Shown: positions 1-8,242 of the stretch, piece after piece
How the letters are laid out: every line of letters starts with the position of its first letter
Numbering within the stretch: position 1 is the first letter of the stretch
From: an uncultured Chthonomonadaceae bacterium
GTDB taxonomy: Bacteria > Armatimonadota > Chthonomonadetes > Chthonomonadales > Chthonomonadaceae
Assembly: GCA_963817895.1 (NCBI GenBank)
Contig: CAWFQB010000003.1
Span: 448,001 to 512,000 of the forward strand
Length of the DNA stretch: 64,000 bases
Reading direction: 5' to 3'
Position numbers and translations under genes: made by a program
The notes under the pieces: model-generated
Told to the model about the DNA's origin: nothing
The model's input: only the letters and a program-made list of their open reading frames with translations
Database searches by the model: none

Positions 1-729
1 CCGGCCCGCTACATCGGCATGCAGGTCGTCGAAGACACGCCTTGCGAGGTCATTGAATTAATCGGACACAAGCAGACGATTCGCTGGTACATCGGCCCCG
101 ACAGCCAACTGCGGCGTATCGAGGAAACCCGGCAGCAGTATCTCTACCCAATGTCCACCGCGCCTGTCACCACGCGCATCTTTTCGCATTTTCGGTGGAA
201 CCCTGCTCTGCCCGACAGCGAATTCGTGTTTCATCCGCCCGCCAAAACCGAACCGGGAATAAATAACAAAGCTCGCGCGGTTCCGCTCGGCTGGCAGGTT
301 CCTCCATTTGTCCTTCCGCAATGGCATGGCAAGCCTGTCAGTATGGCCGACGCGCTGAAAGGCAAGAGGGCGCTGTTTTTATTCTTTTCCGCCGGTTGAA
401 TCTGCTGCACGGAGGAGTTGCCTCACGTTCAACAGTTCGCGGATCGGCTAAAAACGCAAGGTGTCGCTGTCCTCATAGTTACCCCTCCGAACGGAGTGGG
501 AACCGCGAGAACCTGCATGACAGCCCACAACGTAACATTGCCCCTGCTTATCAGCGATGATCGCGCATCGGAGCGCTTCAAAGTCGTGTCTTCACCGGGG
601 GCTTATCTTTTGGACGCTAAAGGAAGGGTTGTCTGGACGGATGTGAATCGAACCAATACCCTGTCTACAGCCTTATCTCGTCTGGGAATAGCTATCCCGC
701 CGCCTGCTGTTAAGAGCCTGTCCCCATAG
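1..729 (+). CDS. LolA-like plus TlpA/AhpC-TSA redoxin domain protein, probable selenoprotein (in-frame TGA 397-399); 5' end outside the window
   Basis: Frame open from base 1; ORFs 19-399 and 418-729 share a frame; read-through gives LFFSAG-U-ICC-TEELP, matching the FWATWCxxCxxEMP redoxin motif; later SPGAYLLDAKGRV fits a thioredoxin-fold cis-Pro strand. Confidence 0.75.
409..428 (+). promoter_or_regulatory. putative bacterial SECIS hairpin
   Basis: ACG-GAGG [AGTTG] CCTC-a-CGT; the apical loop follows the UGA after a 16-nt spacer and has G at loop position 2. Confidence 0.55.
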
Positions 730-846: not shown

Positions 847-1542
847 TTACGCCTGCTCACCGGATATGGCAGACGGTTCGGCAGGTGTTTCGGATGGCAA
901 AGGCATACTCAGAGCGGAAAAGGGCGGCGGCGTGGGCGCGACGACAACGGGCGGCCACACAATTTTGGCCTTGCCCTTGATGGTCAGCCGTCCCGGTTCG
1001 CATTTGATCTCGTCCAGCCGGACGGAAACAGGCAGTTTCGCTAAATCCAGCGTGAGAATGCGGTGTACATGCTGTTCGATTACTTCCAGAACCGGGGCGG
1101 GAATGGTAATGCCCACCCGCGCCGATTGAAAATCCAGTCGCACCCGCGTGCCGTTGTCCACCACCGCGATGCCTTCCAGCGTAAACGGCAGGCTCAAAAC
1201 AGACTTGACAAAGAGGCCGGTAATCCGCGCTTTGCCGGACAACAGCGACAATTTCACGCCGCGAACAGGCGCGTCCGGGGGCATGTTGGCGGCAAGCAGG
1301 CGGTTCAGGTTCGGTTCGGTCATCATGGCGGTGAATTTGGTTTCGACCACGCTGACCTTCGTAATCGGTTCCTCTTCACCCGCTAATTTATGCGATTCAA
1401 AGGCGATCTCCGTGCCGTCCAGAAACACCTCATCAAGCAACAGGTCTTCGCGCAACTGCACCTGCTGTAAGTGTATCTGCGCGCCCCCCACCTTAAACTG
1501 AACGTCCTGTTTGCGCGCGGGCGCGACTGCCGTTGCGGTCAT
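847..1542 (-). CDS. DUF2993/LmeA-like (TULIP-type) protein
   Basis: beta-rich ORF with 'MTEPNLNRLL' and 'LTIKGKA' pattern; GGGAG RBS before ATG 1542. Confidence 0.55.
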   Translation of the reverse strand: MTATAVAPARKQDVQFKVGGAQIHLQQVQLREDLLLDEVFLDGTEIAFESHKLAGEEEPITKVSVVETKFTAMMTEPNLNRLLAANMPPDAPVRGVKLSLLSGKARITGLFVKSVLSLPFTLEGIAVVDNGTRVRLDFQSARVGITIPAPVLEVIEQHVHRILTLDLAKLPVSVRLDEIKCEPGRLTIKGKAKIVWPPVVVAPTPPPFSALSMPLPSETPAEPSAISGEQA

Positions 1543-1558
1543 AAGCAACTCCCGTTTC

Positions 1559-2205: not shown

Positions 2206-2910
2206 ATGTCCGAAACCAACGACGGCAACAATCAGGAAGCCCCTGATACGGCAGGACAGCCCAAGCAATTCTGGCCGCGCGAGCCATTCAGCGGGCTTTC
2301 ACATCTTGTGGGCGCGTTCCTCTCTGTTTTGGGACTGGTTGCGCTGCTGATACTGTCGCGGGGCAAGCCCTGGCACACGCTTGGCTTCGCTATTTACGGC
2401 AGCAGTCTGATTCTGCTGTACATGGCAAGCGGATTGTACCATAGCCTGCATGTATCCGAACGGCGGCTCAACGCGCTGATGCGTTTCGACCACAGCGCGA
2501 TTTTCCTGCTGATTGCCGGAACCTACGCGCCCCTGTGTCTGGTTCCCCTGCGCGGGGCATGGGGCTGGAGTTTGCTTGCAGCAGAGTATCTGTTGGCCGC
2601 GCTCGGCATCGGCTGCGTCTTGTTATTCAACGGCAAGCCGGAATGGGCGCGCGTCGCGCTGTATGTCGGCATGGGGTGGCTGGCCCTGATTGCCCTGCCC
2701 TCCCTGTGGGCGGCCCTGCCTCCCGGCGCGGTGTGGTGGCTGGTGGGCGGCGGCGTATTATATACGGTGGGAACCGTATTCTATGCTACCAACTGGCCGC
2801 GTTTGTGGCCGGGAAAGTTCGGTGCGCACGATCTATGGCATGTGTTTGTATTGGGAGGCAGCGCGTGTCACTTTGTTTTGATGCTTTATGTGTTAGGGAG
2901 TAGGGAGTAG
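2206..2910 (+). CDS. trhA: hemolysin III / PAQR family membrane protein
   Basis: EPFSGLSH, SGLYH, DHSAIFLLIAGTY and HDLWHVFVLGG motifs; about 7 TM. Confidence 0.9.
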   Translation: MSETNDGNNQEAPDTAGQPKQFWPREPFSGLSHLVGAFLSVLGLVALLILSRGKPWHTLGFAIYGSSLILLYMASGLYHSLHVSERRLNALMRFDHSAIFLLIAGTYAPLCLVPLRGAWGWSLLAAEYLLAALGIGCVLLFNGKPEWARVALYVGMGWLALIALPSLWAALPPGAVWWLVGGGVLYTVGTVFYATNWPRLWPGKFGAHDLWHVFVLGGSACHFVLMLYVLGSRE

Positions 2911-6486: not shown

Positions 6487-8242
6487 GTGGATCAGTTTCG
6501 ACGATTATTAGGCTATTTACGCCCCTATCGCAAGCGCGTCGGGCTGGCGGTCTTCCTGCTGCTGTGTCAGGCGACCACGCCCGTTATCATGCCCAAACTG
6601 CTGCAATACGCGCTTGACGACGTGTTGCCGCATCATCGCTACGGAACGCTGAACTGGATCGGAATCGGCATTTTCGCGCTGTACGCCCTGCGCGGCGTGA
6701 TCTCTTTCGCGCTCAACTATATCATCGGCTGGCTGGGGCAGCGCATTGTTTTCGATCTGCGCTTTCAATCCTATCGCCACCTGAATCGCCTGTCCCTCGC
6801 CTACTACGACACGCGGCAAACGGGCAAAATTATCTCGCGCCTGATGAGCGATATTGACTTTATTCAGCAGATGATTTCTGGCAACTTTGTGCAGTTTATG
6901 GCGGACTCGATGAGCGTGATTATCGTGCTTGCCATGCTGTTCAATATTCAGTGGCGGCTTGCCCTTGTCGCCCTGATAGCCATCCCCTTTTATGTGCTGA
7001 ACTACAAGCTGTTTATCCGCCACATTCGCCCCATCAGCGAGGAGTTGCGCGAAAAATGGGACGCCCTTCTCGGCATGTTGCAGGAGAAGTTGACGGGCAT
7101 CAACGTTGTGAAAGCGTTTGTGCGCGAGGATTATGAAACCGAAAAGTTCATGGGAACCGTGATGGACAATTTCACGCTCGGCATGAAGCAGATGAAGATG
7201 AACCGGCGCTTGCAGGGCGTGGCACAGGTGATACGCGGCATCGGAACCGGCCTGGTGCTGTGGTACGGCGGCGCGTTGATATTGCATCGGTATATGCGCA
7301 TCGGGGAACTGATCGCTTTCAACGCCTTAATCGCGCAATTGTACGACCCGGCTGTACGCATCGTGGACTTTAATGTGCAGGTGCAATGGACGGGCGCGGC
7401 GATTGAACGCATATTCGAGACGCTGGACACGCGCCCCGAAATTGTGGACGCGCCCAACGCCGTGACCATCAAGCAAATGGCGGGCGCGGTGGAGTTCCAG
7501 AACGTGTCGTTCGGCTACGATCCGAATCTATCCCGTGCTGCACGACATAGATTTGAGGGTAAATCCCGGCGAGATTATCGCCATTGTCGGACCGTCCGGC
7601 GCGGGCAAAACAACCCTCGTCAATCTCATTGCCCGTTTTTACGATGTGAATCAGGGGCGCATACTGGTGGATGGAACCGATTTGCGGCAGGTGCGGTTGG
7701 AATCGGTGCGGCGTCAGATCGGCATCGTCAGTCAGGAGAGCCTGCTGTTTTCCGTCTCGTTAAAAGAGAACATCCGGTACGGCAAGCCGGGTTCGACGGA
7801 TTTGCAGATATTGCAGGCGGCCAAAAACGCCGACATGCACAACTTCATTATGAACCTGCCGCACGAGTACGATACGAAGATAGGGGAAGACGGCATCAAA
7901 TTATCGGTAGGCCAGAAGCAGCGCATGAGCATCGCCCGCGCCACGCTTACCGACCCGAAAATCCTGATTCTCGACGACGCGACAAGCGCCTTAGACAGCA
8001 AAACGGAAGCGAATGTGCAAGCGGCTTTAGAACGATTGATGAAGGGCAGAACGTGTTTCGTGATCGCGCACCGGCTTTCCACGATTATGAACGCGGACCG
8101 CATTGTGGTTATGGAATTGGGCCGAATTGTGGATGTGGGAACGCACGACGAACTGGTAGCGCGTCCCGGCGTGTACCAGAAACTCTACAATGAGCAGTAC
8201 CGCAGCGCGAGAGAAGAGGCCATGGAAGCCCTCTTCGCGTAA
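6487..8242 (+). CDS. ABC exporter partner subunit (one +1 indel near 7531, probable read error)
   Basis: TMD in 6487 frame joins NBD of 7535-8242 (GPSGAGKT, LSVGQ, ILDDA, AHRLST) at 'GYDPNL/PVLHDIDL'. Confidence 0.9.

Follow-up and report, generated by a model that had tools for sequence, protein, structure and literature searches.

The question raised by this locus is whether a TGA in the middle of an otherwise open frame is a stop or a codon. At the left end of the window, by which we mean the whole 64,000-nucleotide stretch of DNA analysed (G000:C3:448001 onward, G000 being the source genome), frame 1 holds two open reading frames, 19-399 and 418-729, with TGA 397-399 as the sole break between them. 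A sequence-only reading had taken these for a single selenoprotein gene, encoding a UxxC redoxin fused to a LolA-like domain, which automated annotation would cut in two.

A read-through gene that begins upstream of the window

The arrangement of the two frames was confirmed on the sequence, translation through the TGA reproduced the predicted peptide FFSAG-U-I-C-C-TEELP, and database proteins do stop exactly before the Sec codon. The single read-through gene thus stood, while its extent did not: the 237 aa that 19-729 would encode are part of a 389-aa product with Sec at residue 280 (U280). The open frame runs past the window's left end, ATG 19 is internal, and the true start lies 441 nt upstream of the window at G000:C3:447560 (L001:9560), an ATG that follows AGGAGG both here and in the orthologue genome G002. 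A scan for promoters and terminators gave results at chance level.

The gene neighbours, ThuA-like upstream and LmeA-like downstream, are unrelated and offer no clue to the substrate. The LmeA-like phospholipid-binding gene (window 847-1548, minus strand) is convergent with the selenoprotein gene and syntenic in G002; further on lies an HlyIII-family membrane protein (2206-2910, plus strand). An ABC transporter gene at 6487-8242 (plus strand) is seemingly in two frames (6487-8193 and 7535-8242), likely through an indel.

Table 1. Features of the selenoprotein gene, in window coordinates.
Feature	Position	Strand	Basis or remark
3' part of the gene, codons 148-389 and stop	1..729	+	start codon, RBS and signal peptide lie outside the window
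LolA/DUF2092-fold domain, C-terminal part (whole domain about residues 28-237)	1..270	+	Pfam, model matches
ResA/TlpA/DsbE-type redoxin, thioredoxin fold, about residues 240-378	277..693	+	Pfam, PDB sequence, fold
In-frame TGA, very probably U280, first Cys of CxxC	397..399	+	alignment to ResA and Cys homologues; TGA in G002
U-I-C-C motif (U280, I281, C282, C283)	397..408	+	identical in G002
Bacterial SECIS, overlapping codons T284-V290	409..428	+	fold, Sec versus Cys rows, pair counts
E286, three residues after the second Cys	415..417	+	aligned to Glu of ResA KKEFP
C319, extra Cys common to the orthologue only	514..516	+	alignment
P346, cis-proline position	595..597	+	nearly invariant in the family alignment; second Pro of ResA PLP

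Conservation of the TGA and its column

Comparison with relatives makes it almost certain, in our view, that TGA 397-399 is decoded as Sec and that this is a genuine selenoprotein gene. An orthologue in the same-genus genome G002 is 76% identical and syntenic, and has the same TGA and the same U-I-C-C; between the two, dN/dS is 0.19 before the TGA and 0.25 after it. The first 32 nt from the TGA are identical where local nucleotide identity is 80%, and the 36-nt run over the TGA and the hairpin that follows it is the longest identity in the 480 nt compared (the next is 30 nt; 80% overall), which taken alone would be modest evidence. A third orthologue, available as a protein sequence (P0005, 71%), terminates at this column too.

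The TGA column aligns to the first Cys both in Cys homologues and in the CxxC of ResA, which agrees with the placement of the TGA that had been proposed, and the Cys/TGA pair expected among homologues at this column was found. A substitution error at the TGA is unlikely since the identical triplet occurs in two species, though G002 is also frameshift-rich. A lone TGA would prove little here, because the assembly is noisy and contains a clpB gene with an apparently non-Sec in-frame TGA; a codon-model scan for genome-wide read-through was mostly noise, with this gene outside the top 70. The case for a Sec-containing redoxin is instead carried by the orthologue's TGA, the Sec/Cys pairing at the column, the Sec machinery and the covarying SECIS described below.

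A short hairpin common to the Sec forms

The hairpin is exactly as first described in its fold, its spacing of 16 nt and its loop G. It pairs ACG 409-411 and GAGG 412-415 with CCUC 421-424 and CGU 426-428, leaving A425 as a bulge; the loop, AGUUG 416-420, begins 16 nt after the UGA, with G417 at loop position 2, followed by U. The bacterial SECIS model, as set out in the available part of PMC13188914, has a loop of 3-9 nt, an upper stem of 4-16 bp, a G in the first two loop positions, a spacing of 16-37 nt and an MFE of at most -7.5 kcal/mol. The proposed fit to this model holds for the geometry (5-nt loop, 4-bp stem, G at position 2, spacing 16) and is borderline for the energy, where the minimal hairpin gives -7.3 (408-428) to -7.6 kcal/mol (a 24-nt stretch) against the threshold of -7.5, and 397-440 gives -14.6 kcal/mol. 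Considered alone, the hairpin is not beyond chance, with shuffle z values of -1.99 (408-428), -1.73 (397-440) and -0.28 (400-450).

It becomes significant only by comparison. We scored a fixed register, a 4-bp stem with the loop G 17 nt past the UGA, across the redoxin domains of loci L009-L028, L263-L292 and L151 and six G000 stretches, counting identical 45-mers once (L020 and L021, which lack CxxC, were left out, and no separate row came from L282 or L289). Stem and loop G were in register in 22/22 Sec-type rows and in 0/25 Cys-type rows; the Sec count is 20/20 when two pattern-found rows are excluded, and 8/8 among rows unseen when the register was set. The genome background is 0.6% (1238 of 207,581 TGA triplets).

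Base pairing behaves in the same way: 93.9% of cells were paired in 19 Sec rows (including the pattern-found L151), against 39.5-71.1% in slid controls and 42.4% in 22 Cys rows. Pair 17-27 is A-U in 14/19 Sec rows and C-G in the other 5/19, and is never unpaired; where one side changes from Glu to Ala, the wobble base of a Pro codon on the other side changes with it. These rows include kin and are not independent, and the figures are counts rather than P-values. Scanning the whole of G000 for a TGA followed by the hairpin returned 51 matches, and the top five by open frames on both sides were all UxxC redoxins with one offset, the pattern having been derived from them. The selD hairpin (L005), compared by eye, also has a G at the position of G417, counted as 18 nt downstream, in a different loop.

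Selenocysteine machinery in a noisy assembly

The search for Sec machinery in G000 returned selA, tRNA-Sec and a selD whose own Sec position is an in-frame TGA; selB (L003, G000:C14:204959-206861) was also found, yet spread over several frames. Both G001 and G002, of the same genus, have 641-aa open selB frames, selA is split in the frameshift-rich G002 assembly, and rpoC is frameshifted in G000. A DsbD-like gene (L298) is present in G000 and is frameshifted as well. We read the selB and DsbD-like frameshifts as probable assembly noise, and the clpB gene mentioned above (L295, G000:C3:742917), which combines a TGA at a non-Cys position with a 3' frameshift, probably reflects assembly error too.

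Overall, selB was over cut-off in 27/41 genomes searched, and in 14/14 other Sec-form genomes tested among the SECIS-comparison rows (9 + 5). The Sec-form genome G221 has tRNA-Sec; G024 (84% complete) has a Sec-form gene and tRNA-Sec with no selB match. Members checked from four genomes without a selB match (G032, G033, G034, G039) were all Cys forms; apparent TGA codons in G033 and G032 proved to be terminal stops.

Other observations on G000 include an array of 16 tRNA genes (G000:C4:227906-230044, minus strand), a 'tRNA-Pyl' (CTA) at C11:90528-90599 and a tRNA-Cys with ACA anticodon at C1:603139-603212, both called by ARAGORN, and a second, divergent rpoB/rpoC-like pair (G000:C1:1673746-1675993, minus strand) that is also in G002.

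Alternatively, the TGA could truly end translation, mark a pseudogene or stem from a sequencing error, leaving a 279-aa product or two proteins: the assembly is error-prone, with the TGA inside clpB as an example, databases call the 279-aa form, and GGAGG 411-415 resembles a Shine-Dalgarno sequence. We nonetheless find this extremely improbable, as the TGA is shared with a second species and a third is truncated at the same point, purifying selection continues downstream of it, and a stop here would cut a thioredoxin fold at its active site. Restart of translation at TTG 418 is further opposed by the position of GGAG, which directly abuts that codon and is buried in the stem, and by its change to GCGG in homologues that carry a compensating partner. 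Read-through as Trp or Cys instead of Sec deserves practically no credence; Cys would fit the column, but the tRNA-Sec is the only tRNA with a TCA anticodon among the 67 called, and the forms with TGA go together with selB or tRNA-Sec and have a hairpin that is missing from the Cys forms.

The redoxin domain and its U-I-C-C site

The C-terminal domain matches Pfam AhpC-TSA at 55.5 bits (cut-off 26) and Redoxin at 39.9 (26.6), and its best PDB sequence matches are ResA, with E 6e-11. In the predicted structure, residues 240-378 match DsbE/ResA-type folds (3gl3, Z 15.0, 2.5 A, 133 aligned), and the BCP peroxiredoxin 5epf also matches, with a Z of 14.2 that ties with TlpA-type matches. In the alignment to ResA, its CxxC cysteines correspond to U280 and C283, the Glu of KKEFP to E286, and the second Pro of PLP to P346. 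E286 thereby aligns with ResA E80, a residue that we take to be catalytic; the PDB listing includes an entry 'ResA E80Q', and a literature search on ResA Glu80 found nothing. P346 occupies the cis-proline position of the thioredoxin fold, and its geometry is presumably cis. No NCBIfam model reaches its cut-off with the 389-aa protein (NF002854 ResA, for example, gives 45.2 against 170), and the peroxiredoxin motif PxxxTxxU is absent, the sequence here being FFSAG-U-ICC.

The domain may have drifted in function, since the usual Trp before CxxC is missing (FFSAG-U) and the tree branch is very long (2.47). Its U-I-C-C site had been called unusual, and it is rare among both Sec and Cys homologues: it was found in G000 and G002 only, and CxCC occurs in 0/114 full-length fused Cys-type matches among the best 150 database representatives. 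At least one LolA-fused metagenome gene, in L151, has U-N-C-C, and it was the sole redoxin among the 120 U-x-C-C-plus-hairpin metagenome matches examined. Upstream of it, L151:31-1290 (plus strand) has an in-frame TGA in A-R-C-U-V-F-A-G and is a possible second selenoprotein. Position 3 of the motif is Pro in 24/25 Cys rows and in 1/22 Sec rows; U-x-P-C is nonetheless present in several TGA-plus-SECIS pattern matches. Because this position is so rarely Pro in Sec rows, C282 may be just a tolerated small residue where Sec forms avoid Pro.

Signal peptide and LolA-fold domain

The suggestion of possible export gains from the N-terminus encoded upstream of the window, where residues 1-27 resemble a signal peptide by eye and by hydropathy: MIKSRRSILALICAGLFPAIVLPTRASA, with presumed cleavage before DE, a basic start, a hydropathy peak of 2.55 at residue 7 and A-S-A before D-E, an A-x-A-then-D pattern that is repeated across the family alignment. 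Hydropathy predicts no membrane helix after the signal peptide. In all likelihood, to judge from these sequence features, the product is exported, its signal peptide being cleaved between A-S-A and D-E, and resides in the periplasm as a soluble protein. Export by Tat was rejected, S-R-R-S-I-L being present with a twin Arg that is absent from the orthologue, and so was a lipoprotein: Cys13 lacks a lipobox and is not in the orthologue.

The LolA-like domain, proposed from the window's sequence, was borne out by Pfam and by structure. DUF2092 (PF09865) is matched at 31.1 bits against a cut-off of 21.2. In a model built with AlphaFold2 on an alignment of 16 rows (mean pLDDT 74.6, pTM 0.64, with residues 105-145 of low confidence), residues 28-237 match LolA-type folds at Z of about 14: 2yzy (Z 14.3, rmsd 3.1 A, 157 aligned), 4mxt (Z 14.3, 3.4 A, 170 aligned) and 8orn (Z 14.0, 3.9 A, 169 aligned), with 8v1k LolA found by Foldseek at E 1.5e-8. 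LolA-fold proteins that are not shuttles also match the model (MucB 6jau, Z 12.7; VioE, Z 12.2). TIGR00547 lolA gives 19.2 bits and does not reach its cut-off of 112, and PF03548 (LolA) has no match in the protein or in G000 (81% complete). The accessible part of PMC4520260 reports that DUF2092 keeps the hydrophobic cavity of the LolA family in part; that of bioRxiv 10.1101/2021.05.31.446380 describes the Lol system as practically absent from Terrabacteria, among which Armatimonadetes are diderms.

A family with Sec and Cys forms

Within the phylum, 89/251 genomes were matched by a profile of the fusion at E <= 1e-45, seven candidates being scored per genome, and the family has both Sec and Cys forms. 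By hand count, 22 of the 130 fusion matches listed contain one TGA, its position having been checked where a locus was returned. Of the 12 LolA-like matches in G000 alone, three are Sec fusions, one is a Cys fusion and the other 8/12 are not redoxin-fused. DUF2092 was matched at E <= 0.001 in 14/16 family members and Pfam LolA in 4/16. The best 150 database representatives, which are proteins only, include 114 full-length fusions and 15 whose last residue falls at the Sec column or immediately before it, so that 15/129 fused matches within this set look like stand-alone DUF2092 proteins. CxxC is lost in 8/114 of the full-length database fusions, and likewise in loci L020 and L021; such LolA-redoxin fusions hint at a non-catalytic role for some members. 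The Sec/Cys tree has seven changes, of which starred branches force only two, with the bootstrap not settled, and suggests repeated switching between Sec and Cys.

Among named genomes the TGA-plus-SECIS pattern returned 110 stretches; 72 of the 80 examined are redoxins and 20 are LolA-fused, with 17 of these 20 labelled Armatimonadota, two Planctomycetota and one Actinomycetota. These labels point to Armatimonadota, probably Chthonomonadales, as the group to which G000 belongs. A metagenome search with the protein gave 350 pattern matches, none confirmed.

Two of the G000 paralogues, G000:C11:128053-129189 (plus strand, L270) and G000:C6:13634-14572 (minus strand), are LolA-fold fusions to U-G-A-C redoxins with the same SECIS, and the Cys-form paralogue lies at G000 C4:893154-894287. 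A C-G version of the SECIS accompanies a stand-alone U-G-S-C redoxin (G000:C3:2145-2573, minus strand) and a YVTN beta-propeller fused to a U-G-P-C redoxin (L297:206-1681, minus strand). Loci L029-L108 carry a module of U-x-x-C-x-E-E-[FL]-P-H plus SECIS in Acidobacteriota, Planctomycetota and records labelled Bacteroidia, where its partners are TPR, Por-tail and other domains. A DUF4760-rhodanese protein with a Y-C-A-U motif (L296:45-962, plus strand; G000:C1:83994) has the rhodanese_LYCAU selenoprotein model as its best NCBIfam match, at 72.3 against a cut-off of 115, and is a probable selenoprotein with a different fusion.

Proposed function and its alternatives

Viewed as a whole, the protein would most likely be a periplasmic disulfide reductase fed by DsbD. 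SelB and tRNA-Sec would decode UGA 397-399, directed by the hairpin 16 nt downstream, and the ResA/TlpA-type domain would, by the chemistry of its family, probably be a reductase or isomerase of the thiol-disulfide type. The selenolate of U280 would attack a substrate disulfide or an oxidised Cys, and C283 would then resolve the U280 intermediate by forming a selenenylsulfide, which a membrane protein of DsbD type would re-reduce. The ResA-like sequence and fold, the Glu at +3, the cis-Pro position and the DsbD-like gene in the genome all favour a reductase role. More tentatively, the LolA-fold half-barrel could be a tethered holder of the substrate, an acylated or hydrophobic envelope client, rather than a canonical lipoprotein shuttle. 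Taken jointly, Sec, export and a thiol-disulfide reductase role form a combination that we find fairly probable.

A different catalysis is conceivable for the same architecture. An enzyme that works in the periplasm as a lipid-hydroperoxide peroxidase or in lipid repair, using the LolA-like cavity to extract an oxidised lipid for reduction by Sec, would make use of the hydrophobic cavity of LolA-family folds (partly kept in DUF2092 according to the portion of PMC4520260 available) and of the resistance of Sec to irreversible oxidation, as described in the accessible part of PMC13188914; the likeness of the redoxin model to BCP peroxiredoxins (5epf, Z 14.2) fits it too. It is unlikely, however, as Sec stands first in UxxC and not in the PxxxTxxU of peroxiredoxins (a motif given in that same part of PMC13188914), the best sequence matches are ResA and its relatives, and the Cys homologues carry CGPC or CPPC, motifs of disulfide reductases. 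A change of role confined to this genus-level branch, with U-I-C-C and C319 moved to metal binding or to a second-disulfide relay, strikes us as distinctly unlikely. The orthologue retains C282 as well as C319 at dS of about 0.7, the branch is very long and has lost the conserved Trp, and U-N-C-C recurs in L151; yet only two full sequences, close kin, have U-I-C-C, L151 has by eye no Cys at the C319 position, its joining of this branch may be long-branch attraction, and position 3 is simply non-Pro in 21/22 Sec rows.

The LolA-like domain might instead be a true lipoprotein or lipid shuttle, with the redoxin as an accessory that keeps cargo cysteines reduced. LolA structures are indeed among the top fold matches and Pfam LolA is matched by 4/16 members, but non-shuttle LolA folds match equally well (MucB 6jau, Z 12.7; VioE, Z 12.2), the score against TIGR00547 lolA is 19.2 bits versus 112, and Lol is practically absent from Terrabacteria in the account given by the accessible part of bioRxiv 10.1101/2021.05.31.446380; we regard a true shuttle as very unlikely. 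A bolder reading, which we consider rather doubtful, is that a LolA-type lipid-binding barrel, repurposed in a phylum reported to be without Lol, offers its clients, acylated proteins or oxidised lipids of the envelope, to a tethered Sec redoxin, the whole being a periplasmic selenoenzyme family not described before. Were this true, it would mean selenium-dependent quality control of the envelope, with several paralogues per genome and repeated Sec/Cys switching, to which the U-I-C-C branch would add a second redox or metal-binding Cys pair.

Significance and comparison with known systems

The fusion with its SECIS is the part of the original proposal that stands as its substance; the extra Cys of U-I-C-C is secondary, and the gene is a divergent member of a sizeable family rather than a single case. 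The LolA-fold and UxxC-redoxin fusion is apparently an uncatalogued family, of which this probably exported protein is one divergent member, and apparently a new domain architecture for the bacterial selenoproteome. A short covarying SECIS is common to several phyla, and the family gives a lead on the function of LolA-fold proteins where the Lol system is absent. Since matched Sec and Cys versions exist, sometimes in the same genome, why Sec is kept becomes directly testable in one scaffold.

In literature searched by titles and abstract openings, we found no account of a selenoprotein fusion of LolA fold and redoxin, the terms 'LolA', 'DUF2092' and 'Armatimonad' have 0 occurrences in the main text of PMC13188914, and the accessible portion of the deep-Sep supplements (PMC12013277) has no match for the fusion. 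BSepDB (PMC13326102), in the part of its description available, screened Armatimonadota genomes by tblastn with known families and may well therefore contain family members that are labelled as redoxins.

In its chemistry, the Sec site is of a type already known. The accessible part of PMC13188914 lists UxxC selenoproteins with PF00578, PF08534 and cd02966, including, in its Table 1, a 'Prx-like thiol:disulfide oxidoreductase' (PF00578, UxxC/UxxU) and a 'Redoxin family protein' (PF08534, UxxC). Our protein shares with these, as described there, the Pfam domains above cut-off, Sec first in UxxC and a canonical bacterial SECIS; it adds a 210-aa LolA-fold domain, a signal peptide and U-I-C-C. Among named Sec models, NF041054 WAxxUGC_long and NF040769 SelL_rel_redox also have a Sec thioredoxin fold and match weakly (35 versus 300 and 27.1 versus 120 bits), while redoxin_TUGYCR (NF053656) and HUIPC (NF047660) have no match to the protein at E <= 0.01, even though U-I-x-C is common to HUIPC, going by its motif in the available text of PMC13188914, and to our protein.

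Bacillus ResA and DsbE/CcmG/TlpA are the closest solved sequences and folds, with the CxxC register, the Glu at +3 and the cis-Pro position kept. The selenoprotein differs from this group in that Sec replaces the first Cys, the motif is not preceded by Trp, position 3 is not Pro and no membrane helix is predicted after the signal peptide, and its neighbours are not cytochrome c maturation genes. With LolA/DUF2092 proteins it shares DUF2092 above cut-off and, in the model, an open barrel of LolA type; unlike LolA, it lies far under the equivalog cut-offs, is fused to a redoxin, and belongs to a lineage reported, in the part of the preprint available, to be without the Lol system.
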